IMG/VR virus record: IMGVR_UViG_3300032295_004079
Span: 48,984 to 112,983 of that record
Length of the DNA: 64,000 bases
Direction: 5' to 3' (one strand)
DNA from: a virus
Lineage: Duplodnaviria > Caudoviricetes
Positions 21,998-43,808 of this stretch are shown here, in pieces (position 1 is the stretch's first letter; every line of letters starts with the position of its first letter). The notes beneath the pieces were generated by a model. The model worked only from the letters and a program-made list of their open reading frames with translations, had not been told where the DNA came from and did not search any database. The position numbers and the translations under genes were made by a program.

Positions 21998-22620
21998 AGA
22001 TTTCATATGCAATAACAGTAAAGGATGAATTAATTGAGTTAGATAGACTTTTATTTAAACTTGAAAATCACAAAAGAGATAAGGATGAAATTGTAGTTGT
22101 GTACGATAGTGCAAATGGGAGAGAAAATGTAAATCAATATTTAAGAGCTAAAACAGTCAATAAAAGTTTTTTTAGATGGCATGCCTTTGAATTCAAAAAT
22201 GATTTTTCGGAATTAAAAAATTATTTAACCAAACAATGTACTGGTGATTATATTTTTCAAATAGATGCCGATGAAATCCCACATGAATATCTAATTTCAA
22301 TATTACCCACCATACTAGAGTCAAACCTTGAAACCGAAGTATATCTAACACCAAGAGTTAACACTGTAGAAGATATTACCCAAGACCACATTCAAAAATG
22401 GGGATGGAGAGTGGATGAAAAAGGATGGATCAATTATCCTGATTACCAATGGAGAATTTGGAAAAACAAACCTGAAATAAAGTGGATAAATAAAGTTCAT
22501 GAAAGGTTGGATGGGTTTAAAACTTATGTAGCTTTACCACCACAAGAAGAATTTTCTTTATATCACCCAAAAACTATAGAAAAACAAGAAAAACAAAACA
22601 ATTATTATAATACACTATGA
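21994..22620 (+). CDS. Glycosyltransferase, GT2
   Basis: ISYAITV, QIDADE, VHE. Confidence 0.88.
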   Translation: MKISYAITVKDELIELDRLLFKLENHKRDKDEIVVVYDSANGRENVNQYLRAKTVNKSFFRWHAFEFKNDFSELKNYLTKQCTGDYIFQIDADEIPHEYLISILPTILESNLETEVYLTPRVNTVEDITQDHIQKWGWRVDEKGWINYPDYQWRIWKNKPEIKWINKVHERLDGFKTYVALPPQEEFSLYHPKTIEKQEKQNNYYNTL

Positions 22621-23759
22621 AAAAAGTATGGTATGCCCCTAATAAACTAGAAGCTTATGGGGAAGAAGAAATAAAAGCAGTTGAACAATGTCTTCGAGAC
22701 GGTTGGTTAGCAGGTTTTGGCCCACGTTCTATTGAATTTGAAGAAAAAATTGCAAAAGAATTTGGGAAAAAATTTGGTGTATTTGTAAATTCTGGCTCAT
22801 CTGCTTGTTTACTTGCTATTGCATCCATGGATTTACCTAAAGGATCTAAAATCATTACTCCTGCCTGTACGTTTTCAACTACACTGGCTCCTATTATCCA
22901 ACTTGGATACAAGCCAGTATTTGTAGATGTGGGATTGAATGATTATGTAGCAGATATTGAACAAGTAGTAAATGCTATTACAGAAGAAGTAAAAGCTATT
23001 ATGTTACCTAATCTAATTGGAAACAAACCAAACTGGAAGCTTTTAAGACAAATTCTTAAAAATATGAATAGAGAAGATATTGTTCTCATTGAAGATTCAG
23101 CTGATACAGTAACTGAAACTCTAGAATCAGATATCTCAACTACTAGTTTTTATGCTTCTCACGTTATTACAGCAGGCGGAATGGGAGGAATGGTAATGTT
23201 TAATGACGAAAAATATGTTAAACGTGCTTTAATGTTTAGAGATTGGGGTCGTATTGGAGATAATAGCGAAGATATGAGCGAACGTTTTGCACATGATGTT
23301 GATGGTTTGCCTTATGACTATAAGTTCTTATATGGTGTTTTAGGATATAACATGAAGTGTAGTGAAATGAGTGCTGCATTTGGCTTAGTACAACTAGAAC
23401 GTTTCCAAACCTTTAAAAACAAACGTAGAGATAATATCAAGAGATATCTAGAAAACCTTAAAGATGTTAAAGAACTTATTTTACCTGACGATAGTATAGA
23501 ACCTAACTGGCTTGCTATTCCCCTTCAAACTGAACGTAGACTAGAATTGCTTAATTTCTTGGAAAGTAATAATATTCAAACTAGAGTTACATTTGCAGGT
23601 AATGTTACTAGACACCCTATTTACAGAGAATATCTACAAGAATTCAAAAATTCAGATCTAATAATGAAAAACGGATTTTTGTTAGGTGCTCATCATGGGA
23701 TGGATCTAGATGATGTAGATTATGTTTGTGATAAAATTAAAGAATTCTTTAATCAATGA
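22617..23759 (+). CDS. DegT/RfbH-family PLP enzyme, His-type (3-dehydratase-like)
   Basis: VNSGSSA, SFYASHVIT with His at the PLP-Lys position, FRDWGR, GYN. Confidence 0.8.
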   Translation: MKKVWYAPNKLEAYGEEEIKAVEQCLRDGWLAGFGPRSIEFEEKIAKEFGKKFGVFVNSGSSACLLAIASMDLPKGSKIITPACTFSTTLAPIIQLGYKPVFVDVGLNDYVADIEQVVNAITEEVKAIMLPNLIGNKPNWKLLRQILKNMNREDIVLIEDSADTVTETLESDISTTSFYASHVITAGGMGGMVMFNDEKYVKRALMFRDWGRIGDNSEDMSERFAHDVDGLPYDYKFLYGVLGYNMKCSEMSAAFGLVQLERFQTFKNKRRDNIKRYLENLKDVKELILPDDSIEPNWLAIPLQTERRLELLNFLESNNIQTRVTFAGNVTRHPIYREYLQEFKNSDLIMKNGFLLGAHHGMDLDDVDYVCDKIKEFFNQ

Positions 23760-24172
23760 TACAATATTTCTCTAAAATAGATCCCCAAAAACTACTGCAT
23801 GTGGTAGTTAGAAAAGAAGATTTAACTCCTGGGAGAGTAGAAGTAGTACCTGAAGATAATTTTATCCAATGTGCTCTTCTTAATATGGAAAAAGGTAAAA
23901 CTTTTAAACCACACAGACATATCTTTAAAGAGAGAACTAGAAATGTTATAGCTCAAGAGAGTTGGATTGTGGTTCAAGGTAGTGTAAAATGTACTTTTTA
24001 TGATCTAGATAATTCAGTACTAGTTGAACCTATCCTAAACCCAGGAGATGCTTCTTTTACACTAGAAGGAGGACATACCTACACTATTTTAGAAGACAAC
24101 ACTTTGGTGTATGAATACAAAACAGGACCTTATGAAGGTCAGGCTTTAGATAAAATATTTTTAAATGACTAA
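23756..24172 (+). CDS. Cupin (WbuC-like)
   Basis: PHRH, QE, GGH, YEYKTGPY. Confidence 0.7.
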   Translation: MIQYFSKIDPQKLLHVVVRKEDLTPGRVEVVPEDNFIQCALLNMEKGKTFKPHRHIFKERTRNVIAQESWIVVQGSVKCTFYDLDNSVLVEPILNPGDASFTLEGGHTYTILEDNTLVYEYKTGPYEGQALDKIFLND

Positions 24173-24677
24173 GGATATTTTTATTCACAAAGATGCAGAA
24201 TTCAAAATAGATCCTGTAATGGGGGATCATATTGCAATTGATAAAGGGGTGTATTGTACCGTTAATATTACAATCGGAGAATACACCCATATCTCCCCAT
24301 ATGTTACTATTATTGGTGGAAAAAACGCGTACTTCTACAGTAATGGTTTCAATAATATAATGGCGGGTGCACGAATTATCTGTGGATCAGACAGATTTGA
24401 TGGTTCGGGATTATTTGGAGCTATGATTCCAAATGAATTTAAAGGTAAACAAATTATGAAACCTGTAGTAATGGAAAAATTTTCTAACATAGGAACTAAT
24501 GCTATTGTTTTACCTGGTTCTACTTTAAGAGAAGGAGTACTTTTAGCCGCGGGAAGTTTACTAATGGGTGATACTGAAGCTTGGGGTGTGTATAAGGGCA
24601 ATCCTGCTGTTTTAGTTAAAAAAATAGATCCAACACTTACAAAACAAAAATATAATGAACTTTCAAGCCGTAACTGA
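24165..24677 (+). CDS. Hexapeptide-repeat acyltransferase
   Basis: IG...I repeats, IGTNAIVLPG, GNPA. Confidence 0.85.
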   Translation: MTKDIFIHKDAEFKIDPVMGDHIAIDKGVYCTVNITIGEYTHISPYVTIIGGKNAYFYSNGFNNIMAGARIICGSDRFDGSGLFGAMIPNEFKGKQIMKPVVMEKFSNIGTNAIVLPGSTLREGVLLAAGSLLMGDTEAWGVYKGNPAVLVKKIDPTLTKQKYNELSSRN

Positions 24678-25242
24678 ATTTGAAAATAAATTAGCTGAGT
24701 TTTTTGGTTCTCCTTATGCTATAGCTACAGATTGTTGTACTCATGGGGTTGAATTATCTTTAAGGTACACAAAAGCTAAAGTTATAGAGGTTCCAAAACA
24801 TACTTACTTGTCTATTCCTTTTTTAGCTGATAAACTAAATATAGAACTAAAATGGAAAGATGATAACTGGAAAGATTATTATTATCTAACCGATAAAGTT
24901 ATTGACGCAGCTGTGCTTTGGAAGAAAAATAGCTATATTCCTGGAACTTACATGAGTATCTCATTTCAGTACCAAAAACACTTGTCTTTGGGAAGAGGTG
25001 GTGTTATATTAACAGATGATAAAAATGCAGCTGAGGAATTAAAAAAGATGAGCTATGATGGTAGATTACCTAACATACCCTGGAGAGAACAAGATATAAC
25101 AACCATGGGGTACCATTATTACATGACCCCAGAAACCGCCCAATTAGGGTTGAATAAACTAGAAAATGCAATTAATTCCCAACCTAGACAATGGGTTGTA
25201 GAAGATTGGCCTAATTTAACTAACATGAAAATTTTTAAATAA
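24655..25242 (+). CDS. Short DegT-like PLP aminotransferase
   Basis: DAA, SFQYQKHL, GGVILTDD, YDGR. Confidence 0.72.
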   Translation: MNFQAVTEFENKLAEFFGSPYAIATDCCTHGVELSLRYTKAKVIEVPKHTYLSIPFLADKLNIELKWKDDNWKDYYYLTDKVIDAAVLWKKNSYIPGTYMSISFQYQKHLSLGRGGVILTDDKNAAEELKKMSYDGRLPNIPWREQDITTMGYHYYMTPETAQLGLNKLENAINSQPRQWVVEDWPNLTNMKIFK

Positions 25243-26216
25243 TGAAAAAAGCTTTTATTACAGGTATAGGGGGACAAGATGGTTCTTATCTAGCAGAATA
25301 TCTCTTAGATTTAGGGTATGAAGTCCATGGAATTATTAGAAGAAATTCTACTCCTGAACATCAACAATCTCGATTAGATGGGATAAGAACTAATCCAAAT
25401 CTTCATATATCTTATGGTGATTTACTAGATATTTCAGGTATTGAACGTCTACTATCTCAAATCCAACCTGATGAGATTTATAATTTAGCAGCCCAATCTC
25501 ACGTGAGAATTAGTTTTGAAATTCCACAATTTACAATCCAAGCTAATGCTTTAGGAGTAGTTAATGTACTGGAAGCTATGAAAAATAACTGCCCAAATGC
25601 TAAATTTTATCAAGCAAGTTCCTCTGAAATGTTTGGTAGTGCTGTAGATGAAGATGGTTTTCAAAGAGAAACTACTAGGATGAATCCTGTATCTCCATAT
25701 GGATGTGCAAAAGTATTTGGTTATAATATAGTTCGTAACTATAGAAATGCCTATAATTTACATTTATCAAATGGTATTTTGTTTAACCATGAATCTCCTC
25801 GTAGAGGTTCTAACTTTGTAACCAATAAAGTAGTTAAAGCAGCCATAAGAATTAGCTTAGGCCTTCAGGATAAATTAGAATTAGGTAACTTAGATGCTTA
25901 TAGAGATTGGGGTCACTCAAAAGATTATATTAAGGCTATGCATTTAATTTTACAACAACCTAACCCTGGAGATTGGGTAGTAGCTACAGGTGAAACTCGT
26001 TCTGTGAGAGATATGTGTAAATATGTTTTTGAAAAACTAAATCTTAACTATGAAGATTATATTGTTCAAAATCAAAAATTCCTCCGTCCTGAAGAATTAA
26101 AATACCTAAAAGGAGATTCTACTAGAATAAGAGAACTAGGATGGAAACCTGAATATACTTTCGAAAGTATGATGGACGAAATGATTGAATTTTGGGTTAA
26201 GTATTATAATAAATGA
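25242..26216 (+). CDS. gmd: GDP-mannose 4,6-dehydratase
   Basis: GQDGSYLAE, AAQSHV, QASSSE, SPYGCAK, FNHESPRRG, RDWG. Confidence 0.96.
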   Translation: MKKAFITGIGGQDGSYLAEYLLDLGYEVHGIIRRNSTPEHQQSRLDGIRTNPNLHISYGDLLDISGIERLLSQIQPDEIYNLAAQSHVRISFEIPQFTIQANALGVVNVLEAMKNNCPNAKFYQASSSEMFGSAVDEDGFQRETTRMNPVSPYGCAKVFGYNIVRNYRNAYNLHLSNGILFNHESPRRGSNFVTNKVVKAAIRISLGLQDKLELGNLDAYRDWGHSKDYIKAMHLILQQPNPGDWVVATGETRSVRDMCKYVFEKLNLNYEDYIVQNQKFLRPEELKYLKGDSTRIRELGWKPEYTFESMMDEMIEFWVKYYNK

Positions 26217-27091
26217 GCAATTATATAACTTTAAAAGAAATGGGGTCTTCTGGGGGGCTATGCTCCCAACTCCAAATTTTTGCCTCACTAGTAGCAGTTG
26301 CAAAAGCAAATAATTTAAAAATTGCATTTTCTGAAAACATGATTAAAAATCATGGAGTAGGTATCCGAATATTTGATTTATTAGATTTATCCTCAGAATA
26401 TGAATTAAAACCTGAAGAATTTTTTAGTAATTTTAGAGATAAACATATTAATTTTCATACCACAAGATATGATGAAAGTTTATTTAATCTAGAATCAGGA
26501 TTTAATTATAACTTAGTTGGAAGATTTGATTTATACACTTATTGGTATAATAGTGTTGGAGAAAAAGTATCAAAATGGGAATACCAACCAGAACTAAAAA
26601 TCCAAGCGCAAGAAAGATTAGATCAAATAAAAAAATACTTTGGTAATGATAAACCCTTAGTTAGTATTCATATTAGAAGAGGAGATTATTTGCTCCCCCA
26701 ATATTCTTTTTGTATATTAGACCATGAATATTACACTAAAGCTATAGTAGATCATTTTCTACCTATAGAAGATTATAACTTTGTAGTTTTTTCTAATGAT
26801 ATAGAATTTGCTAAAAATCTATTTGTTGGTGACAATATATGGTTTGTAGATCCTATTGGAGGAGAAAAAATATGCACCGATTCAGAAAAAGAAGATTTAA
26901 CACTTTTAAGTTTGTGTGATCATCACATTATAAGTAATAGTTCGTATCCTTGGTGGGGTGCGTATTTAAGTAAAAATAAAGATAAAAAAATTATATGCCC
27001 CACAAATTATTTAAAATCTTACCACCAGTCATCTTGGATAAACGGAAATTGGTATCCTCCTAACTGGTTTAACATTAATAACAAAACTTAA
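26213..27091 (+). CDS. GT11 alpha-1,2-fucosyltransferase-like
   Basis: HIRRGDY, FSND, SNSSYPWWGAYL. Confidence 0.88.
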   Translation: MSNYITLKEMGSSGGLCSQLQIFASLVAVAKANNLKIAFSENMIKNHGVGIRIFDLLDLSSEYELKPEEFFSNFRDKHINFHTTRYDESLFNLESGFNYNLVGRFDLYTYWYNSVGEKVSKWEYQPELKIQAQERLDQIKKYFGNDKPLVSIHIRRGDYLLPQYSFCILDHEYYTKAIVDHFLPIEDYNFVVFSNDIEFAKNLFVGDNIWFVDPIGGEKICTDSEKEDLTLLSLCDHHIISNSSYPWWGAYLSKNKDKKIICPTNYLKSYHQSSWINGNWYPPNWFNINNKT

Positions 27092-27093
27092 TT

Positions 27094-28044
27094 ATGAATA
27101 AAATAGTATATGTTACAGGTTGTCTAGGATTTATTGGTTCCTATGTAACCCGCAAATGCCTAGAAAGAGGTTGGTACGTAAGAGGAATTGATAAGATAAC
27201 TTATGCCTCTAACCCTAATTTGTTATATGAATTTCTCGAATATCCTAATTTTGTATTTGAAGAAAAAGATATTAATGACATTGAATTTCTTTATGAATGT
27301 GATTATTTCATAAACACAGCTGCTGAAACGCATGTAGGAAATTCAATTGTGAAAAGTGAAGATTTTCTCTATTCTAATGTAAACGGAGTATACCATATTC
27401 TTGAATTACTTAGGAATTATCGCCAAGAAAGCTCTACTCTTCCTACTTTTATCCACTTCAGTACAGATGAGGTTTATGGAGATATTGAAAATGGATCACA
27501 CGGAGAAAAAGATATATTAAAACCATCTAACCCATATGCTGCAACAAAGGCAGCAGCAGATCAACTTATATTAGCGTGGGCCCGCACTTATAGTTTACCT
27601 TATGTTATTTTACGTCCTACTAACAACTATGGTATTGGTCAGTATGTTGAAAAACTTATCCCTAAGTCTGTTAAGTTTTTATCACTAGACAGAAAAATTC
27701 CTCTCCATAATGGTGGAACCCCCATTAGAAATTGGCTAAACGCTGATGATACAGCTGAAGCTGTAATGGTTGTTATTGATAACAAAGTCCAAAATGAAAT
27801 TTTTAACATTTGTGGTGGATTTGAACAAAGTAATTTGGAAACTGTAAGTAAAATTATTAATTTAATGTTGCCGAATGAAAATGTAGATGACCATTTAGAT
27901 CTGCATATTGTAAGAGTAGGTCAAGATATAAGATATGCTTTAGATGATTCTAAATTGAGAGCATTAGGTTGGTCTCCTAAAAAAATATTTGACCAAGAAC
28001 TTCCTAAAATTGTAGAATATTATAAAAATAACTTTATTTGGTAA
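27094..28044 (+). CDS. rfbB: dTDP-glucose 4,6-dehydratase-like
   Basis: GCLGFIGS, AAETHV, STDEVYG, NPYAATK, NNYG, EKLIP. Confidence 0.88.
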   Translation: MNKIVYVTGCLGFIGSYVTRKCLERGWYVRGIDKITYASNPNLLYEFLEYPNFVFEEKDINDIEFLYECDYFINTAAETHVGNSIVKSEDFLYSNVNGVYHILELLRNYRQESSTLPTFIHFSTDEVYGDIENGSHGEKDILKPSNPYAATKAAADQLILAWARTYSLPYVILRPTNNYGIGQYVEKLIPKSVKFLSLDRKIPLHNGGTPIRNWLNADDTAEAVMVVIDNKVQNEIFNICGGFEQSNLETVSKIINLMLPNENVDDHLDLHIVRVGQDIRYALDDSKLRALGWSPKKIFDQELPKIVEYYKNNFIW

Positions 28045-28844
28045 TGAACAACAGAGAATTTAAATGTGTTAAGATTTTAACAGATCTTATTGAAAACGAA
28101 GGATTAGTTGGTATTAAAACTAGTTTTGAAGACGAAGGAGCTTTATTTAATGAAACTATTCGTTTAAAAGAAATTTGCAACCAATCTAAAACCAAAATTA
28201 CTTTAAAGATTGGTGGACCTGAAGCTATTCGAGATTTGAAAGATTCAATGGTGATTGGAGTAAAGGGAATTGTTGCACCTATGGTAGAATCAGATTTTGG
28301 GCTCAGAAAATTTGTCCAAGCTACTAAAACTTATATCCCTGAAGATGTACGTTCTTCTCTTCAACTTAGTATTAATGTTGAAACCGCTACTGCTGTATCT
28401 AACATCGAAAAAATGGTAGCTACTTCTGAAGTAGAAGATTTGTACGGAATTACTGTAGGACGTGTAGATTTGGTTTCGTCTTTAGGAAAAGATCGTAATT
28501 ATGTAAATAGTGATGAAGTCTACAATATGGCTAAAACTGTTTTTACCCATGCTAAAGAAAAAGGATTAAAAGCTTGTTTAGGTGGAGCAATTTCTACAGA
28601 TTCCCTCCCATTTTTGAAGAAATTGAATTCTGAAGGATTGCTAGATAAGTTTGAGACTCGTTATGCAATGTTTGATCCTTCAATTACTTTAAAAAATCTA
28701 TCTAGAGCTTTATCTAAAGCCCAAATGTTTGAGTATGAATGGTTAATGGCAAAATATGAATTATATAGTTCAATGGCTAACCAAGATATCAAACGAATCC
28801 AAATGATCCAAGATCGTATCAATCAGTCTATGACATTTAAATAA
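28038..28844 (+). CDS. HpcH/HpaI aldolase / citrate-lyase-beta family protein
   Basis: KIGGPEA..D, APMVES, INVET, GRVDL. Confidence 0.75.
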   Translation: MVMNNREFKCVKILTDLIENEGLVGIKTSFEDEGALFNETIRLKEICNQSKTKITLKIGGPEAIRDLKDSMVIGVKGIVAPMVESDFGLRKFVQATKTYIPEDVRSSLQLSINVETATAVSNIEKMVATSEVEDLYGITVGRVDLVSSLGKDRNYVNSDEVYNMAKTVFTHAKEKGLKACLGGAISTDSLPFLKKLNSEGLLDKFETRYAMFDPSITLKNLSRALSKAQMFEYEWLMAKYELYSSMANQDIKRIQMIQDRINQSMTFK

Positions 28845-28845
28845 A

Positions 28846-29481
28846 ATGGATATTTTATTAACAGGAGGATCTAGGGGTATAGGAAAAAGTATTAAAGATT
28901 TATTTGAATCTCGTGGTCATAATGTATATTCCCCCACCAGAGAAGAATTAGATCTTTCTAAACCTATATCCCTACCCAAATGTGAGTTTGATATTGTTAT
29001 TAATAATGCTGGGGTAAATTTTCTAAAATCTATTTTAGATATAGATAATGATGAAATAATGAGGATTAATTATACCTCCCCATTAGAAATAATCCAGCAA
29101 TGTCTCCCTTATATGATTTCCAGAGAATATGGTAGAATAATTAACATAGGAAGTATTTGGATTGATTTAGCTAAACCTAAAAGGCTAGCATATAGTGCCA
29201 GTAAAAATGCTTTACATTCTTTAACTAAAGCCCTTACAGCCGAATATGCCCATAAAGGAATTCTTTCCAATACAATTTCACCAGGATTTATTTCTACCGA
29301 TTTAACTTACCAAAATAATAGTACAGAACAATTAACTGCTCTGCAACACAATATACCTGTAGGTAGATTGGGATTGCCTGAAGAGGTAGCAAAATTAGTA
29401 TATCAATTGACAGTTGATAATACTTACATTGCGGGGCAAAATATCAAAATAGATGGAGGATACTCATGCACAATTTATTAA
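28846..29481 (+). CDS. SDR oxidoreductase
   Basis: TGGSRGIG, NNAG, YSASK, IDGG. Confidence 0.92.
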   Translation: MDILLTGGSRGIGKSIKDLFESRGHNVYSPTREELDLSKPISLPKCEFDIVINNAGVNFLKSILDIDNDEIMRINYTSPLEIIQQCLPYMISREYGRIINIGSIWIDLAKPKRLAYSASKNALHSLTKALTAEYAHKGILSNTISPGFISTDLTYQNNSTEQLTALQHNIPVGRLGLPEEVAKLVYQLTVDNTYIAGQNIKIDGGYSCTIY

Positions 29482-30482
29482 ATATACCTTCTAAAGTTAA
29501 TAATTATACTTTAGGTTTTGTTGATTCTATTTCTGAGATTGAAGATCTTATAGATCAAAGCAATACTATAACTATTATAGATCACAATGTTAGTGAATTA
29601 TATCCTAATTTAAATCGTGATAATAATATAGTTTTAGTTTGCAATGAAAATTCTAAAACCTTAGAAGGAACTGCTTTATTAATATCTAATTTAATAAATC
29701 TAAAAGTTAATATTAAAACCAAACTAGTGGTTATAGGGGGAGGAATACTACAAGACTTAGTAGGATTTAGTGCTTCAATATACGCTCGTGGGATTGAATA
29801 TATTCTTGTTCCTACTACTTTACTTGCTCAAACTGATAGTTGTGTTGGTGGAAAAACATCAATTAATTTTGATTCTAGAAAAAACTTAATAGGTACCTTT
29901 TATCCCCCTACAAGTATAGTAATTTGTACTAAATTTTTAGATACTTTATCTCCTTTAGATTACATAAGCGGGTTGGGAGAAATATATAAATTTCACATTC
30001 TCCAAAATAAAACTCCTTATTTTTCTCCTAATTCTAATATAGAGTCTATGATTTTAGATAGTCTTAAATATAAAGTAGATATCTTATCAAGAGATGAATT
30101 TGATAAAGGAGAACGTAAGTTTTTAAATTTTGGTCATACTTTCGGCCATGCTTTAGAATCTACATCTAATCATGAAATACCTCACGGAATAGCGGTTATA
30201 TTAGGAAGTATGCTTGCAGTAAAGTTATCCAATAACTTAGGGTATAAAGTAGATAACTATGATTGTATCATTGAAAAAGGAATAGATTTAATACAAAAAA
30301 CTAATATTAACTTTGATTCTAAGTGGTTTGATTTTGATTCTTTAATGGAAATAGTAAAATCTGATAAAAAAAGTACAGGAAAATTAACAATGGTATTAAT
30401 AGATGATAAGCCTTTTTTGGAAAACGTTGAAGACGTTAGTATATTAAAGGAAACATTAAAACAAATTTATGAGAGTATCTGA
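29466..30482 (+). CDS. 3-dehydroquinate-synthase-family sugar phosphate cyclase
   Basis: GGG...D, PTTLLAQTDS.VGGKT, GE..K, LNFGHTFGHALE, HG.AV. Confidence 0.88.
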   Translation: MHNLLNIPSKVNNYTLGFVDSISEIEDLIDQSNTITIIDHNVSELYPNLNRDNNIVLVCNENSKTLEGTALLISNLINLKVNIKTKLVVIGGGILQDLVGFSASIYARGIEYILVPTTLLAQTDSCVGGKTSINFDSRKNLIGTFYPPTSIVICTKFLDTLSPLDYISGLGEIYKFHILQNKTPYFSPNSNIESMILDSLKYKVDILSRDEFDKGERKFLNFGHTFGHALESTSNHEIPHGIAVILGSMLAVKLSNNLGYKVDNYDCIIEKGIDLIQKTNINFDSKWFDFDSLMEIVKSDKKSTGKLTMVLIDDKPFLENVEDVSILKETLKQIYESI

Positions 30483-32199
30483 TTATGTAATCCAATTTCT
30501 TAGAGACAATTACGGAGTAGACACTATATTCACAGTTTCTGGAGGTGGGTGTATATTTTTAATTGATTCCTTAGGTAGTACTGAAGGAGTAAAATATGTA
30601 GCTACTCACCACGAGCAAGCTGCTTCTATTGCTGCTGAAGGTTATGCTAGAATGAATGATAAATTAGGAGCATGTATTGTTACCAGTGGGCCCGGTGGCA
30701 CAAATGCTATAACCGGAACTCTTTGTAGTTGGTTAGATTCTATACCTGTTATCACAATTAGTGGACAGGTAAATAAAGAAATGACTACTAATTACACTAA
30801 GTTACCTCTAAGACAGCTAGGAGACCAAGAATTTGATATCATTCAGTCTGTTAAAAACATGACTAAATACGCGATCCAGGTAAATGATCCTTTAGAAATT
30901 AGATATCATCTAGAAAAAGCATGCACTTTAGCTACTACAGGAAGACCAGGACCAGTTTGGATTGATATTCCACTAAATGTCCAATCTGTGGATATTGATC
31001 CCAATTCCCTAATAGGATGGGAAGAAACTATTGATATTCCATCTCCTTCACAATCTCAAATAAATTTGGTTTTAGAAAAATGGAAACAGGCTAAAAAACC
31101 TCTTATGATTGTGGGAAATGGAGTTAGATTAAGTAAGGGTATTAAAGAACTTTATTCTCTTTTATCTAAGACAAATATACCTGTTATATCTGCTGTAAAT
31201 GGAAATGATATTGTAAATAATGATTATGAATATTATTGCGGCAGATTTGGCACCCATGCACAAATAGGAGCTAATAATTTGTTAAGCGAGTGTGATTTTC
31301 TTCTTACAGTAGGCAGTAGACTGTATGTTCGACAAACTGGTTATAACTTTGAGGGGTTTGCAAAACAAGCTTATAAAATCCATATTGATGTAGACCAATC
31401 AGAACTAGATAAACCCACTCTTTTTACTGATTTGAAAATCCATTCAGATGCTAAATTGTTTCTGTCTAATTTATTAGGTTACTCACTACCATCTACTTCT
31501 CCTGAATGGTTGGAAGAATGTTCAAAATGGGCTTCTGCTCCTAAAGTATTGGACAGACATAGATCTAATAAAGATTATGTAAGTCACTATGCCTTCATAG
31601 AAACTTTATCTAAGGTAAAACCCAAAAATATGCATGTAATAACTAGTGATGGATCTGCTAATGTAGTTACAATGCAAGTAATGGATCTTGAAGGGGAACA
31701 AAGACTAATTACTAATACAGGATGTGCTCCTATGGGATATGGTCTACCAGCAGCTTTAGGTGCCTCTACTCACCACGAAGTAATTTGTATAGAAGGAGAT
31801 GGAAGTTTACACTTAAATGTTCATGAGTTACAAACTATGAAACATTATAATCTTCCTATCAAACTTATATTATTAAATAATGATGGATATACTTCTATTA
31901 AAATATCTCAAAAAACTTTCTTTAATGGTAAATTCGTAGCATCTGAAAAAAATAGTGGAGTATCATTTCCAAATTTTGAAAAATTAATAAAAGCTTATGA
32001 TTTACCATATTTTAGCATCAAAACTAATGGTAAAGCTGAAGATGTTTTGAATGAATTCTTTTCACTAGATGGACCCGCGGTTTGTGAAGTATTTACTGAT
32101 CCTAACGAGTACCATGAACCTAAAGTTGTAGCTTCTTTAGATAAAAATGGAAAATTCATTCCTGGAGAACTAAAAAATATTCAATGGCTAGAATCTTAA
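30469..32199 (+). CDS. ThDP-dependent acetolactate-synthase-like (YerE-like) enzyme
   Basis: HHEQAA, TSGPGGTN, LRQLGDQE, GRPGPVW, GDGS...NN. Confidence 0.88.
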   Translation: MRVSDYVIQFLRDNYGVDTIFTVSGGGCIFLIDSLGSTEGVKYVATHHEQAASIAAEGYARMNDKLGACIVTSGPGGTNAITGTLCSWLDSIPVITISGQVNKEMTTNYTKLPLRQLGDQEFDIIQSVKNMTKYAIQVNDPLEIRYHLEKACTLATTGRPGPVWIDIPLNVQSVDIDPNSLIGWEETIDIPSPSQSQINLVLEKWKQAKKPLMIVGNGVRLSKGIKELYSLLSKTNIPVISAVNGNDIVNNDYEYYCGRFGTHAQIGANNLLSECDFLLTVGSRLYVRQTGYNFEGFAKQAYKIHIDVDQSELDKPTLFTDLKIHSDAKLFLSNLLGYSLPSTSPEWLEECSKWASAPKVLDRHRSNKDYVSHYAFIETLSKVKPKNMHVITSDGSANVVTMQVMDLEGEQRLITNTGCAPMGYGLPAALGASTHHEVICIEGDGSLHLNVHELQTMKHYNLPIKLILLNNDGYTSIKISQKTFFNGKFVASEKNSGVSFPNFEKLIKAYDLPYFSIKTNGKAEDVLNEFFSLDGPAVCEVFTDPNEYHEPKVVASLDKNGKFIPGELKNIQWLES

Positions 32200-32951
32200 T
32201 TACAGGTGGGAATGGTTATATAGCTCAAGCTATTTATACTTCATTAAAAAACGAACATAATATAATTTTAATTACTAGAAAAGATTTTGATTTAACAGAT
32301 TCTGAGTTAACAAACCAATGGTTTAAGAATAAATACTTTGATGTTGTAATCCACACTGCAGTAGTAGGGGGAAATAGATTAAAACCTGAAGATAAAACTA
32401 TCACTGAATTTAATCTTAAAATGTGGAGTAATCTTTTAAATAACAGATCTCATTTCTCCCAGCTAATACACTTTGGATCAGGAGCTGAATTATACATGCA
32501 AGATACACCTTACGGTATGAGCAAACATATTATAGCTGAGAATATTAAAAAAGAATCTAATTTTGCAAACTTAAGGATATTTGCTGTTTTTGATGAAAAT
32601 GAATTAGAAAGAAGATTTATTATCTCTAACATTAGAAGATACATAAATAAAGAACCAATGGTAATCCATCAAGATAAATTTATGGACTTTATTTACATGG
32701 AAGATTTGGTTTCGTTAGTTAAGTTTAGTATCTTACACCCCTCAATAAATTTAATAGACTGTTGCTACCAAGAAAAATGCAAACTATCAGATATAGCAAA
32801 AATAATAAATAATTTATCTGATTATCAAGTTCCCATAGAAGTTTCTTCTAAAGGATTAGCTTCATCTTATACAGGTATTTATAGTGAATTGGGAGTAAAA
32901 TTTATAGGATTAGAAAAAGCAATTAAACAAATTTATGAAAAACTCAATTAG
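32184..32951 (+). CDS. NAD-dependent epimerase/reductase
   Basis: TGGNGYIA, DFDLTD, HTAVVGG, YGMSK. Confidence 0.85.
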   Translation: MARILITGGNGYIAQAIYTSLKNEHNIILITRKDFDLTDSELTNQWFKNKYFDVVIHTAVVGGNRLKPEDKTITEFNLKMWSNLLNNRSHFSQLIHFGSGAELYMQDTPYGMSKHIIAENIKKESNFANLRIFAVFDENELERRFIISNIRRYINKEPMVIHQDKFMDFIYMEDLVSLVKFSILHPSINLIDCCYQEKCKLSDIAKIINNLSDYQVPIEVSSKGLASSYTGIYSELGVKFIGLEKAIKQIYEKLN

Positions 32952-34263
32952 TTTCTGCATAGCCTCAGCTAAAAATGAAAAATATTATACTTTAGGAGTA
33001 TTAAAAAGTTTAGAAGAAAATACTAATTTTTCAGAACATGAAGCTATTATATTTATTGACTCTGACAATCAAGATACTTATGAAGCTCTTTTAGAATATA
33101 GAAAAAATAAACCAAACATTAAAATACATAGAAATACTACAGGTTTTCCTATTGGAAGTCAACGTAATGTTTCAATAATGTTTGCCCATGCATCTAAGGA
33201 AGTTGTAATTTATTTACAATCAGATATGGTTGTTTGTCCAGATTTTGATAAATATTTTTTAGAGGCTTTAGATAATAACAAAAATAGAATTATAAGTGCT
33301 GCTAGAATTGAACCTCCTCTTCACCCTGCATCTCCCGAAAAAATAGTAAAAGATTTTGGATTATCTCCTGAAGAATTTAAATATCAAGAATTTTACCAAT
33401 TTGCTAGAGATTTGCAAAAAGAGAATAGACCATTGATGGATGGACATTTTGCTCCTTTTGGGTGTTTCAAAGAAACTTATTTTAATGTAATTGGTGGATT
33501 TGATACCCAATTTCGTTGTTCTAGAGAAGATTCTGACTTTATTATTAGATTAAAATCTCTTAATTTAGAGACTTACCAAAGTTGGAATGCTTGTGTTTAC
33601 CATTATACTTGTGTATCATCTCGAGGAAATGATTGGTATAAACAAACTACCTCAGCTGAAATTAAAAATGAATGGCAATCAAAAGCAGATCAAGAGGAAT
33701 TAAAAAGATTTATCCGTAAGTGGGGATATTTTGGACATGACTATAGACCTAAGTATCAAACTACCTTAGTACTTGATATTAATACTGCCCCTAATTTAAA
33801 TTTTTTAATTCAAATTGAACCTTATTTTGATAAAATTGTTTTAAACGAAAAACCTGTTATTGATGTATTAATTTCATCCGTAAAATATGAAAGTTATTAT
33901 TTTGCTAATAAAAGATGGGGGTATACCCAAGAACATTGGGATAACATAAGACATAAATTTATGGGTCCTGATCTTAGGGAAAAATTTATTTATACTGATG
34001 ATTATTCTTTTGATGATCATATTGTAGTAAAAACGGACTTACATTCTTTACATAAAAATTCAAAATCTGAAGAAGTGCAGCAATTTATACAAAATTATAA
34101 TTTAATGTTTTATAATTTATTAACAACTTCTCCTGAAAATTATAAAGGTAAGTATCAAATAAATTGTTTTGAGGTTAAAATAAATGAATTAATTGATTCA
34201 AACCTAACTCATTTGAATACTCAACAATATCTTTTTGACACAAATGAATTTATTTTTAATTAA
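32935..34263 (+). CDS. Glycosyltransferase, GT2
   Basis: QSDM, GGFD..F, EDSD, VYH, FIRKWG. Confidence 0.82.
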   Translation: MKNSISFCIASAKNEKYYTLGVLKSLEENTNFSEHEAIIFIDSDNQDTYEALLEYRKNKPNIKIHRNTTGFPIGSQRNVSIMFAHASKEVVIYLQSDMVVCPDFDKYFLEALDNNKNRIISAARIEPPLHPASPEKIVKDFGLSPEEFKYQEFYQFARDLQKENRPLMDGHFAPFGCFKETYFNVIGGFDTQFRCSREDSDFIIRLKSLNLETYQSWNACVYHYTCVSSRGNDWYKQTTSAEIKNEWQSKADQEELKRFIRKWGYFGHDYRPKYQTTLVLDINTAPNLNFLIQIEPYFDKIVLNEKPVIDVLISSVKYESYYFANKRWGYTQEHWDNIRHKFMGPDLREKFIYTDDYSFDDHIVVKTDLHSLHKNSKSEEVQQFIQNYNLMFYNLLTTSPENYKGKYQINCFEVKINELIDSNLTHLNTQQYLFDTNEFIFN

Positions 34264-40140: not shown

Positions 40141-42615
40141 ATGAGATTATTTTTTTTATTTTTGTTATTCCCAATTTTAACATTTGGTCAAGTAACAATA
40201 AAAGGTAAAACTAAGTCAAAATCCGAAGACATCTATTTTGCCCACGTAACTTTCAAAGATATAAATGGTAATACATTTACTACTATATCAAACGAAAATG
40301 CAGATTACCAAATCCAACTCAAAGCAGGTACCTACCAAGTAAAAGCAACTTATATTGGTTACGGTGATTACGTAACAGATATAAATCTAACTTCAGATAC
40401 AACATTTGATGTAATATTTGAAGAAAGTAGTACTGAGTTATCAGAAGTTACTGTACAAGCAATAGCTCAAAAAACAACTGAAATTTTAGTTGTGAAAACA
40501 ATACGAGACAATAGTGTTGTATCAGACGGAATATCAACTGAATTTATTAAAAAAACACCTGATAGAAATGCAGGGGATGCTCTAAAAAGAGTAAGTGGCG
40601 TAACAATCCAAAACGATAAATTTGTTCTAGTAAGAGGATTAGCAGACCGCTACAATTCAGCTATACTTAATAAAACTTTATTACCATCAACCGAACCCGA
40701 CAGAAGAGCATTTTCATTTGATATAATTCCTACCTCACTAATAGATAACATTATAGTTTCTAAATCATCAGCAGCTAATTTACCAGGTGATTGGAGTGGG
40801 GGATTAGTTCAAATCACAACCAAAGAAGTATCAGACAATTTCTTTAATATATCTTTGGGGAGTGGATGGGGTTCAGTTTCAACTTTTAGAGATTTTAAGT
40901 TAGTTCAAGCTACTAAATTCCCATCCCTCTTCCCATCTACCTACAAATATAGAATTAGTGGAAATGGGGATAAAAGGGCGTATACAAAACTAATTGGTAA
41001 TCCAAAAGAAACAAATTTAAGTACGATACCTAATCTAAATGGGGGAATATCTTTCGGATATAATAAAAACAAATTTAGTGCTTTATACAGCTCCACAACT
41101 CGGAATACATATATCCTAAACTACATTGACCGAAAAGATTACCAATCATCAACCGAATTAGCTTATGATTATAAAGATGTTTTGTATGCACAACGCTTTT
41201 CTACAAATAATTTATTTAACTTAACTTATTTAGGTCAAAACAAATATAGTTGGAAAACATTAGTAAATTATCAAGCAGAAAACACTTATTTAACAAGAGA
41301 GGGAGACAATTTTGATAACGTACAAAACGTTTTAAGTACTGCCTCAAACCACATTAACAATGTTGTAGTTAATTCTCAATTAGATGGAAAGATTAGAACG
41401 TGGGATTTTAATTTAGGCTACAATTTTATATTCAGAGAACAACCAGATTATAGAATAAATCCAATTACTAAATCCCTGGGTGTAAATGAGCCTTATCAAA
41501 CGGCTTGGAGAGATACGTATCGGTTTTGGAGCGCAATGGAGGAAAATAGTCTTAGTGGCAATGTAAATAAAGAGTTGGGTAAGATAAAAGTAGGGGGTGG
41601 TTATTTGAAAAAGATTAGAGGGTTTAATGCAAGAGTATTTCGTTATCAGTCTGTAGACATTATGGATGAAATAACAAATAATACCGATAGATACACTGCG
41701 GATTTTGATTTGGCTAACTTGTACACCATGTATGAGAATGATTGGGGGAAATGGAAAATTAACACGGGTCTACGTGGAGAATACAATTTATTTAATGTAG
41801 CAACAGCAGATTTTAGTGGTTCTAAAGTAAATGTAAATAGAGAGTATTTAGATGTGCTTCCTTCACTTAACTTGTCGTATAATGAGGAGAAAACAAAATA
41901 TAGATTTTCTTTGAGTAAAACTTTGGCAAGACCTGAATTTAGAGAAGTAGCTAATTTTGCTTATTATGATTTTGTAAGAAATGCTCAAATATTGGGAAAT
42001 TCTAATTTAGAAAAATCAGATGTGTACAATTTGGATTTAAAATATGAATTTTATCCAACAATTGGAGAAAATATTTCATTTTCGGTATTTGGTAAGAATT
42101 TTATTAGACCAATAGAGCAAGTTGTAGCAGATGGTTCAGTTCCTTCGAATTTGTTGTTAACTTATACAAACCCTGAATCAGCTGTTTTGTATGGTACAGA
42201 ATTGGAAATTAGAAAGAAAATAGTGGAATGGATTGATGTTTACAGTAACATTTCAGTAATGAATTCTGAAGTTAATGTGAATGGGGAAAAGAGACAATTG
42301 CAAGGACAATCTAATTATGTAGTAAATACTGGAATAAACATAAATAAAAAGAATGAAACGCTTAATATAACTTACAATAGAGTAGGAGATAGAATATCGG
42401 CTGTTGGATTTCAAGGTTATCCTGATATTTTTGAAAATAGCAGAGATGTATTGGATATTACATTCTTACATAAGTTAAAGAATGGAGAAGTAAAATTAGC
42501 AATAGGAGATATATTTGCTCAACCATCAGTTTATTACCAAAAAGCACAAAATAGAAATTTAATTAGAACAAATAACGAACAAACTATTTCATTAACCTTA
42601 AACTTAAACTTATGA
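40141..42615 (+). CDS. TonB-dependent outer-membrane receptor with carboxypeptidase-regulatory-like N-domain
   Basis: Signal peptide, ATYIGY, L.EV.V, plug DALKRVSGV..VRGL.DRY, RPEFRE, GNSNL, alternating beta-strand C-terminus. Confidence 0.92.
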   Translation: MRLFFLFLLFPILTFGQVTIKGKTKSKSEDIYFAHVTFKDINGNTFTTISNENADYQIQLKAGTYQVKATYIGYGDYVTDINLTSDTTFDVIFEESSTELSEVTVQAIAQKTTEILVVKTIRDNSVVSDGISTEFIKKTPDRNAGDALKRVSGVTIQNDKFVLVRGLADRYNSAILNKTLLPSTEPDRRAFSFDIIPTSLIDNIIVSKSSAANLPGDWSGGLVQITTKEVSDNFFNISLGSGWGSVSTFRDFKLVQATKFPSLFPSTYKYRISGNGDKRAYTKLIGNPKETNLSTIPNLNGGISFGYNKNKFSALYSSTTRNTYILNYIDRKDYQSSTELAYDYKDVLYAQRFSTNNLFNLTYLGQNKYSWKTLVNYQAENTYLTREGDNFDNVQNVLSTASNHINNVVVNSQLDGKIRTWDFNLGYNFIFREQPDYRINPITKSLGVNEPYQTAWRDTYRFWSAMEENSLSGNVNKELGKIKVGGGYLKKIRGFNARVFRYQSVDIMDEITNNTDRYTADFDLANLYTMYENDWGKWKINTGLRGEYNLFNVATADFSGSKVNVNREYLDVLPSLNLSYNEEKTKYRFSLSKTLARPEFREVANFAYYDFVRNAQILGNSNLEKSDVYNLDLKYEFYPTIGENISFSVFGKNFIRPIEQVVADGSVPSNLLLTYTNPESAVLYGTELEIRKKIVEWIDVYSNISVMNSEVNVNGEKRQLQGQSNYVVNTGININKKNETLNITYNRVGDRISAVGFQGYPDIFENSRDVLDITFLHKLKNGEVKLAIGDIFAQPSVYYQKAQNRNLIRTNNEQTISLTLNLNL

Positions 42616-43808
42616 AAAAACTATTATTAATTATCTTAGCATTTGGAGTATTCAGCTGTGAAACTGAATTAGGGGGAGAAGATGGTGTTATTGGGGTTCC
42701 AACTACAACAACACTTTCGGGTAATATCAACACAACTACAACTTTAACTTCTGATAAAGTTTGGACACTAAAAGGATATGTTTACGTAACAGATGGAGCA
42801 AAGTTAATTATTCAACCTGGAACTGTAATAGTTTCTGATATAGCTGAAAAAGGAGCATTGTGTATTGAAAGAGGAGCACAAATCATAGCAGAGGGAACAG
42901 CTACTAAACCAATTGTGTTTACTTCAGGTAAGCCTGCTGGAGAGCGAGCACCTGGTGATTGGGGAGGTATTATTATATTAGGAAGAGCAAAGACTAATCG
43001 TTCTTCTGAACCTACTATTGAAGGTGGAATAGGTAGAGCTTTTGGTGGAACAAATGATGCTGATAATAGTGGTGTATTAAAGTATGTACGAATTGAATAT
43101 GCTGGAATTGCTGCTATGCCAAACTCTGAAATTAATGCCTTAACATTAGGAGGTGTTGGAAATGGAACAGTAATTGAAAATGTTCAAACTGTATATGCTA
43201 ATGACGATGCGTTTGAATTTTTTGGCGGAACAGTAAATGCTAAAAATTTATATGCTTATGCTACAGCAGATGATGATTTTGATTTTGATTTTGGCTATAC
43301 AGGAACTATTACTAATGGGGTAGCTAAAAGAGACCCTCAATTTGTAGATAGTGGAGATGCAGGCAATGGAGTTGAATGTGATAATGATGGAACAGGTTCT
43401 TCTGCTCAACCAACAACTCATCCTAAGTTGCTTAATATGATTTTAGTTGGTCCTAACGTATCTTCTGCTTTAGCTAACCACAATTTAGGATTAAGATTTA
43501 GAAGAGCAACTCAATTTACAATGAAAAATAGTGTTGTATGGGGTTGGATGAAAGGTGGATTAAGTTTAGAAAGTAATGAAACAGCTCAATTTGTAAAAGA
43601 TGGAGTTTCAGTATTTGAAAACAATTCAGTAGGAACATTTAATCCATCTCTAAATTTTATCAGCAGAGCAACTACAATTTTAACAAATGATCAGCTTAAA
43701 ACACTAGCTTTAAGCAAAAACAACAAAGAAGTAAATGTAGTAATACCTGAATTGGATAAACCAATTTGGATAAATGGGTGGACGAGATTTCCATCAAAAG
43801 GAAATTAA
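42612..43808 (+). CDS. Beta-helix-like lipoprotein partner of the TonB receptor
   Basis: FSC lipobox; PGDWGG, DNSGVLKYVRIEYAG, DDAFEFFGG, DDDFDFD. Confidence 0.8.
   Translation: MKKLLLIILAFGVFSCETELGGEDGVIGVPTTTTLSGNINTTTTLTSDKVWTLKGYVYVTDGAKLIIQPGTVIVSDIAEKGALCIERGAQIIAEGTATKPIVFTSGKPAGERAPGDWGGIIILGRAKTNRSSEPTIEGGIGRAFGGTNDADNSGVLKYVRIEYAGIAAMPNSEINALTLGGVGNGTVIENVQTVYANDDAFEFFGGTVNAKNLYAYATADDDFDFDFGYTGTITNGVAKRDPQFVDSGDAGNGVECDNDGTGSSAQPTTHPKLLNMILVGPNVSSALANHNLGLRFRRATQFTMKNSVVWGWMKGGLSLESNETAQFVKDGVSVFENNSVGTFNPSLNFISRATTILTNDQLKTLALSKNNKEVNVVIPELDKPIWINGWTRFPSKGN

Follow-up and report, generated by a model that had tools for sequence, protein, structure and literature searches.

The window analysed in this study is a stretch of 64,000 nucleotides (nt) covering bases 48984-112983 of IMGVR_UViG_3300032295_004079, a 113-kb IMG/VR viral contig with an estimated completeness of ~69%. 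Among the T4-type replication genes of the window are those for a split DNA polymerase, a clamp loader, GroEL, a thymidylate-synthase homologue, and QueE, and its source virus is an uncultured T4-like phage. Within a glycan island on this contig lies a block of five genes encoding, in order, an aldolase, a short-chain dehydrogenase/reductase (SDR), an enzyme resembling 3-dehydroquinate synthase (DHQS), a thiamine diphosphate (ThDP)-dependent enzyme, and an extended SDR, hereafter the reductase. The original prediction had proposed this block as a candidate new pathway leading to a C4-branched higher-carbon sugar or to a carbocyclic one. Here, we examine the five enzymes, their neighbors, and their occurrence in other viruses and in bacteria, and we weigh what the block may synthesize.

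All genes of the region lie on the + strand. An open reading frame (ORF) check recovered the five ORFs of the block on that strand at the coordinates originally given (Table 1), and both the Pfam and NCBIfam families and the junctions, which consist of either a 1-nt gap or overlaps of 14-17 nt, agree with the initial description of five overlapping or abutting genes. The block therefore holds five genuine genes that are coupled in translation and whose types had been assigned correctly. For the aldolase, the family assignment stood and the start codon did not. An ATG at 28044, which overlaps the TAA stop codon ending the RmlB-like gene by one base (TAATG, 28042-28046), gives a protein of 266 amino acids (aa), compared with 265-268 aa in its homologues, and is the more likely start; the TTG at 28038 that the ORF finder had chosen is probably not the real start. 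A scan of the sequence for promoter and terminator consensus sites returned no more of them than shuffled sequences did.

Table 1. Genes of the block and of the associated sugar enzymes, with coordinates in the window
Predicted product	Coordinates	Strand	Evidence
3-Dehydratase for nucleoside diphosphate (NDP)-4-keto-6-deoxyhexose, dependent on pyridoxamine or pyridoxal phosphate (PMP/PLP), E1/ColD family, His for Lys	22617..23759	+	Pfam DegT E 3e-73; E1/ColD PDB matches
GDP-mannose 4,6-dehydratase (GMD)	25242-26216	+	387 bits, slightly below the cut-off of 415
RmlB-like NDP-hexose 4,6-dehydratase	27094..28044	+	TIGR01181 280 bits
Putative HpcH/HpaI-fold class II (metal-dependent) aldolase	28044..28844 (ORF listed from 28038)	+	Pfam PF03328 E 2e-14
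Short classical SDR, FabG-like ketoreductase, 211 aa	28846..29481	+	Pfam adh_short_C2 E 8e-34
DHQS-like NAD+/metal enzyme (predicted)	29466..30482	+	DHQ_synthase N-/C-terminal domains E 1e-35 / 3e-27
YerE-like ThDP-dependent carboligase	30469..32199	+	All three ThDP-enzyme domains
Extended-SDR reductase, RmlD-like N-terminus	32184..32951	+	Pfam Epimerase E 6e-16, RmlD_sub_bind
GT2 glycosyltransferase, candidate transferase for the branched sugar	32935..34263	+	Pfam Glycos_transf_2; 17-nt overlap with the reductase gene

Enzyme families of the block

The ThDP enzyme is, by sequence, nearer to YerE-like carboligases than to acetohydroxyacid synthase (AHAS). Among its PDB matches, JanthE (8rph) ranked first with 367 bits over residues 3-565, followed by 5ahk with 247 bits and by true AHAS structures with ~215 bits. 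We take 5ahk to be PpYerE, for which Hampel et al. 2018 is said to be the source. The GDG...NN motif and the HHEQ glutamate of ThDP enzymes are both present, and every equivalog cut-off for acetolactate synthase (ALS) was missed, with TIGR00118 reaching 352.8 bits vs the 538 it requires. JanthE is a YerE-like carboligase that accepts ketones, and its ThDP motif reads CDG (PMC12188165), whereas the enzyme from the window has the canonical GDG.

The DHQS-like protein is related to AroB but stands apart from it. Its best-scoring model is TIGR04425 (AroB-related putative sugar phosphate phospholyase, cyclising), on which it obtained 319.6 bits vs a cut-off of 400; on the aroB model, TIGR01357, it obtained 250.4 bits vs a cut-off of 305. 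The housekeeping AroB of Rhodopseudomonas scored ~230 bits on TIGR04425. In a tree that included 63 stand-alone bacterial AroB-like proteins, the DHQS-like proteins linked to cassettes such as this block, both viral and bacterial, formed a separate clade. The PDB matches were led by DHQS (150 bits), with DOIS (the synthase of 2-deoxy-scyllo-inosose) at 106, ValA at 81, and a match like desmethyl-4-deoxygadusol synthase (DDGS) at 65.

All of the AroB-invariant columns that hold catalytic motifs are kept in the DHQS-like protein. We take these to correspond to R130, D146, K152, N162, E194, K197, K250, R264, N268, H271, H275, H287, and K356 of A. nidulans DHQS, a set which presumably includes the residues contacting phosphate and carboxylate. 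Because these ligand-contacting columns are kept, the substrate is probably a phosphorylated 3-deoxy-ulosonate resembling 3-deoxy-D-arabino-heptulosonate 7-phosphate (DAHP). What the protein shares with AroB is thus the fold, the NAD+/metal site, and the catalytic columns; what sets it apart, besides its clade and its score on the aroB model, are family-specific changes at five AroB-conserved positions (G96Q, S126C, G132S, Q147P, and E242I/V) and its place in a glycan operon without shikimate genes. The original prediction had noted no other shikimate or branched-chain amino acid genes, and this was borne out across the 113-kb contig for the four families tried there (DAHP synthase, chorismate synthase, type II dehydroquinase, and the ALS small subunit, ALS_ss_C).

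The remaining three enzymes are the aldolase and the two SDRs. The AlphaFold model of the aldolase has a pLDDT of 95.5, and its top Foldseek matches are the class II pyruvate aldolases HpcH/HpaI/YfaU/GarL (E ~1e-10, TM-score ~0.6). Its Glu and Asp motifs pair with the metal ligands of YfaU and are invariant across 27 homologues. In the short SDR, the TGGSRGIG (TGxxxGIG), NNAG, and YxxxK motifs are all present. The GxxGxxG and YxxxK motifs of the reductase are likewise intact, and we propose from its sequence that it would act as a YerF-like enzyme, reducing the C1' ketone of the branch.

Dehydratases upstream of the block

Upstream of the block are genes for the RmlB-like 4,6-dehydratase, a GT11 glycosyltransferase, GMD, an acyltransferase, DegT proteins of 195 and 380 aa, and several glycosyltransferases. 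The 4,6- and 3-dehydratases that had been placed here are real, and three genes account for them (Table 1): the RmlB-like gene, GMD, and the His-type 3-dehydratase. For the RmlB-like protein, the score on TIGR01181 (dTDP-glucose 4,6-dehydratase) falls below the cut-off of 365, and the CDP-type model gives just 52 bits.

The 380-aa DegT protein is a member of the E1/RfbH family, with E1 (3bcx/3bb8, E 1e-56) and then ColD (E 1e-40) as its top PDB matches. Its segment SFYASHVIT pairs with SFYPAHHIT of E1, which puts an active-site His at the position taken by the Schiff-base Lys in aminotransferases. The protein has no counterpart of E1's Cys-rich Fe-S stretch and is accordingly a reductase-independent 3-dehydratase of the ColD kind. 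The same enzyme could also serve a colitose-like route.

Conservation across viruses and bacteria

Database relatives of the DHQS-like protein number in the thousands; the first 120 are 62-99% identical to it, and nearly all of these are 337-338 aa long. A scan of IMG/VR yielded 80 loci, for which synteny was determined by tblastn with the window proteins. The order aldolase-SDR-DHQS-like-ThDP-reductase recurs in ~40 viral contigs, so the block is not a set of chance neighbors. In these contigs the aldolase is 64-83% identical to that of the window, the SDR 56-72%, the DHQS-like protein 46-69%, the ThDP enzyme 62-79%, and the reductase 40-54%. The SDR gene always occurs as a partner of the DHQS-like gene and is directly upstream of it in the aldolase-first viral loci and in some bacterial ones, and the reductase gene follows the ThDP gene in all viral loci with the window's gene order. 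Conservation extends beyond the five genes: in most of these contigs an RmlB-like gene (61-71% identical) sits directly upstream of the aldolase and a DegT-family gene is nearby, and in many of them a GT2 homologue (35-59% identity) comes after the reductase. Close homologues of the 3-dehydratase lie directly upstream of the cassette in three loci (L084, L121, and L159).

A looser version was found in a contig from a giant-virus metagenome-assembled genome (MAG; L144, IMGVR GVMAG-M-3300023184-184), where the aldolase is 44% identical to that of the window, the DHQS-like protein 38%, the ThDP enzyme 34%, and the reductase 36%. This contig also holds a 65% homologue of the 3-dehydratase.

A scan of bacterial genome contigs returned, among the matches listed, mostly housekeeping AroB at 30-40% identity, together with a few cassette-bearing loci. 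The SDR, DHQS-like, and ThDP genes occur together, in other orders, in Lachnospiraceae, Ruminococcaceae, Eubacterium, Methylacidiphilales, and Actinomycetota. One Ruminococcaceae MAG (L016:5293-16996) encodes, in this order, a nucleotidyltransferase, an E1-like DegT protein, the ThDP enzyme, the SDR, the DHQS-like protein, an FGGY kinase, an HMGL-like aldolase, a GT2, an epimerase, and a 4,6-dehydratase. The FGGY kinase and HMGL-like aldolase, in place of the HpcH-type aldolase, recur in four more loci (L004, L006, L007, and L026). Such a swap of aldolase with the addition of a kinase is what would be expected if the substrate of the DHQS-like enzyme is a phosphorylated 2-keto-3-deoxy acid.

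Comparison with known branched-sugar systems

In the biosynthesis of the acyl-branched sugars erwiniose, caryophyllose, and gastriose, a YerE-like enzyme adds an aldolase-made 2-oxo acid to CDP-4-keto-3,6-dideoxyglucose, and reduction of the branch's ketone follows (Steitz et al. 2022, PMC9306805). The window has in common with this scheme, which covers YerE/YerF of yersiniose, ErwE/F/I/J of erwiniose, and the gastriose enzymes, a putative aldolase that would make the 2-oxo acid, a YerE-like enzyme, a predicted NDP-4-keto-3,6-dideoxyhexose acceptor, and a candidate reductase. However, the scheme gives no role to the DHQS-like enzyme or to its SDR partner, both of which are encoded in the window. 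The aldolases also differ, since ErwI is a BphI-type enzyme that works with an acetaldehyde dehydrogenase and the aldolase of the window has the HpcH fold.

The caryophyllose sub-locus of Mycobacterium marinum (MMAR_2329-MMAR_2336) shares a longer list of parts with the window: a DHQS-family protein, an aldolase/citrate-lyase family protein, a ThDP-binding protein, a GT2, a 3-dehydratase, and a 4,6-dehydratase. MMAR_2331, which belongs to the aldolase/citrate-lyase family, and MMAR_2332 (the ThDP gene) are required for caryophyllose, and mutants deleted for MMAR_2331-2333 do not incorporate it into lipooligosaccharide (LOS) (PMC9306805). MMAR_2329 is annotated as "3-dehydroquinate synthase family" (supplementary table, PMC12395582). 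The family to which MMAR_2331 is assigned is the same Pfam family as that of the window's aldolase. The M. marinum GT2 gene (MMAR_2333) adjoins the ThDP gene. There are differences as well. The 4,6-dehydratase of the window is RmlB-like (dTDP-type) and that of M. marinum is CDP-type; the 3-dehydratase lacks the Fe-S motif that RfbH/E1 have; and, unlike the M. marinum locus, the window version is borne by a phage and came without a detectable nucleotidylyltransferase. Because a bacterial counterpart is known, the pathway is not wholly new, and that part of the original prediction has to be given up.

A putative route to a long-branched deoxysugar

Judging from sequence and from these bacterial analogues, we consider it fairly likely that this phage carries a caryophyllose-type (YerE-type) pathway for a long-branched 3,6-dideoxyhexose, of which the block would provide the side-chain half. 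The C4-branched higher-carbon sugar that had been anticipated is favored by the PDB ranking of the ThDP enzyme, the presence of both dehydratases, synteny, the published scheme, and the M. marinum locus; the carbocyclic option fits these observations less well.

On the acceptor side, the RmlB-like 4,6-dehydratase would act on NDP-glucose from the host, and the 3-dehydratase, with its active-site His, would convert the product into NDP-4-keto-3,6-dideoxyhexose. On the donor side, the HpcH-fold aldolase would join pyruvate to a phosphorylated aldehyde, in the simplest case erythrose 4-phosphate, giving a 3-deoxy-2-ulosonate phosphate. The DHQS-like enzyme would then carry out the opening part of the DHQS reaction, a transient NAD+ oxidation followed by beta-elimination of phosphate, with no ring closure; oxidation beside the carbon bearing the phosphomethyl group, followed by elimination, would mirror the steps of a sugar 4,6-dehydratase. 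Reduction of the resulting ketone by the SDR would leave a methyl-ended omega-deoxy 2-oxo acid. The YerE-like ThDP enzyme would decarboxylate this acid and join the chain to the NDP-sugar at its C4 ketone, after which the extended SDR may reduce the C1' ketone and the adjacent GT2 may transfer the finished sugar. The branch of caryophyllose is a 1,3,4,5-tetrahydroxyhexyl chain with a methyl end. Its donor in such a scheme would be 3,7-dideoxyheptulosonic acid, the 7-phosphate of which is what pyruvate and erythrose 4-phosphate would give.

The novel element of this route would be the pair of enzymes in its middle. We propose, more tentatively than the pathway as a whole and at somewhat short of even odds, that the cassette DHQS-like proteins are a distinct family which halts DHQS chemistry after phosphate elimination and which, with the SDR, would form a deoxygenase that leaves a methyl group where a 3-deoxy-2-ulosonate had its terminal phosphate ester. 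The linear scheme places all six conserved genes in one line, explains the added kinase in the bacterial variants with a different aldolase, and keeps the 2-oxo acid needed by the ThDP enzyme, which cyclisation would destroy.

If the scheme is correct, large phages have the whole pathway for a branched deoxysugar of 12 carbons that had until now been known from only a few bacteria. This would point to glycans of phage making, placed on the virion or the infected cell. The "aroB" and "ilvB" calls inside the glycan islands of phages and giant viruses would then be mis-annotated sugar enzymes, not auxiliary genes of amino acid metabolism. A deoxygenase family of this kind would supply the side-chain donors of caryophyllose-type sugars. 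As the cassette is compact, conserved, and apparently soluble, it is well suited to addressing an open step in caryophyllose synthesis, namely the origin of the methyl end of the side chain.

Several observations weigh against this route. No nucleotidylyltransferase was found in the 113-kb, ~69% complete contig. The DHQS catalytic residues are all conserved, which makes cyclisation compatible with the sequence. The literature searched contained no description of a role for the DHQS-like enzyme and SDR, and none for TIGR04425 or for the DHQS-family gene in LOS synthesis. The likeness to the M. marinum locus is one of annotation names, not of aligned sequences. The aldolase is very divergent, with ~15% identity to solved aldolases, and an invariant Lys seems, by alignment order only, to replace the catalytic Arg of HpaI/YfaU. 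Finally, at least 25 viral loci have the pair of SDR and DHQS-like genes but no ThDP enzyme, so the link of this pair to YerE-like enzymes is not exclusive.

Alternative explanations

The conserved catalytic and binding residues leave room for a true cyclase, in which case the aldolase, DHQS-like enzyme, and SDR would make a quinate- or cyclitol-like carbocycle for a glycan and the ThDP enzyme would use pyruvate, producing a two-carbon branch of the yersiniose type, or would take a carbocyclic ketone as its acceptor. The best-matching NCBIfam model is in fact named for a putative cyclising phospholyase, and cyclic ketones can serve YerE-like enzymes as substrates in vitro (PMC12247030). We nevertheless regard this explanation as unlikely, given that the protein belongs to a clade apart from AroB and scores lower on solved DOIS, EEVS (the synthase of 2-epi-5-epi-valiolone), and DDGS than on DHQS. 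A carbocyclic product is also made less likely because, once cyclised, it would no longer be a 2-oxo acid and could not feed the ThDP enzyme; the conserved aldolase would be cut off from an enzyme with which it is connected in the published scheme and by the knock-outs in M. marinum. Moreover, the M. marinum locus has the same DHQS-family gene, yet to our knowledge the LOS of this species contains caryophyllose and no carbocycle. The sole organism with both this parts list and a solved glycan thus makes a linear, methyl-ended branch, which further lowers the standing of the cyclase.

It is likewise improbable, in our judgment, that two unrelated pathways merely adjoin in the block, with the ThDP enzyme and reductase making a short-branched sugar and the aldolase, SDR, and DHQS-like enzyme making a modified ulosonic acid or other component. 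Such a division would suit the loci in which the SDR and DHQS-like genes appear without a ThDP gene, where they stand beside a CMP-ulosonate-type cytidylyltransferase, a class-III aminotransferase, and an SIS protein. However, ~40 viral contigs and several bacterial phyla have the SDR, DHQS-like, and ThDP genes side by side, in varying order and with frequent overlaps; the ThDP gene is always adjacent in loci of the window's type; and no cytidylyltransferase for ulosonic acid was found in the glycan island of the window. Far less credible is the view that the DHQS-like and ThDP genes are plain auxiliary metabolic genes, serving as aroB in aromatic and as ilvB in branched-chain amino acid synthesis. 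Both proteins match the aroB and ALS models strongly, but they fall below the curated cut-offs (in rounded scores, 250 vs 305 for aroB and 353 vs 538 for ALS), the DHQS-like protein lies outside the AroB clade, and YerE-like enzymes are the nearer relatives of the ThDP enzyme. Furthermore, none of the four shikimate and branched-chain amino acid families searched was found in the contig, and the genes are embedded in the glycan island and translationally coupled to it.

Related modules and other genes of the island

A second, recurrent phage module is represented by L143:4108-14387 and by ~25 other viral loci (L123-L161), and it has neither a ThDP enzyme nor an aldolase. Its genes encode an E1-like DegT protein, an RmlB-like dehydratase, a GT29-like (sialyltransferase-like) protein, a CTP_transf_3 cytidylyltransferase-cupin fusion, the SDR, the DHQS-like protein, a class-III aminotransferase, an SIS protein of GmhA size, and MptE-like proteins. 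From its gene content, this module may make a CMP-activated modified ulosonic acid. Should the proposed deoxygenase activity be real, the same family would supply precursors of CMP-activated amino/deoxy ulosonic acids here, and phages would be using both modules to build glycans of their own.

A branched-sugar cluster of R. palustris has been named in the literature (Steitz et al. 2022, PMC9306805). The aldolase of the window had no match at E 1e-8 in 19 Rhodopseudomonas genomes. Three loci from this genus (L169, L170, and L171, in genomes G014, G008, and G018) carry a second DHQS-like gene that scores ~170 bits on TIGR04425 and is 28-30% identical to that of the window. These second copies have GT4 genes and an SDR as neighbors, joined at one locus by an RmlB-like gene, and neither a ThDP enzyme nor an aldolase is present. 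The Rhodopseudomonas result neither helped nor hurt the proposed pathway.

Other genes of the island may belong to separate branches of sugar metabolism. GMD is followed by a gene of the GT11 fucosyltransferase family (window 25242-27091), a pairing that suggests a separate GDP-6-deoxyhexose branch. The ORF at 23756-24172 was considered as an FdtA-like ketoisomerase and rejected, as it gave no meaningful Pfam or PDB match. The 195-aa DegT-like protein (24655-25242) keeps the Lys, in SFQYQKH, at half the length of an aminotransferase, and it is conserved in three other loci (L082, L083, and L149). The acyltransferase encoded just before it has as its top PDB matches the 3vbi-series entries, deposited as galactoside O-acetyltransferase. 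Further downstream, at 40141-43808 of the window, the phage encodes an 824-aa outer-membrane protein resembling TonB-dependent receptors, with a CarboxypepD_reg domain, which is compatible with a Bacteroidota host.

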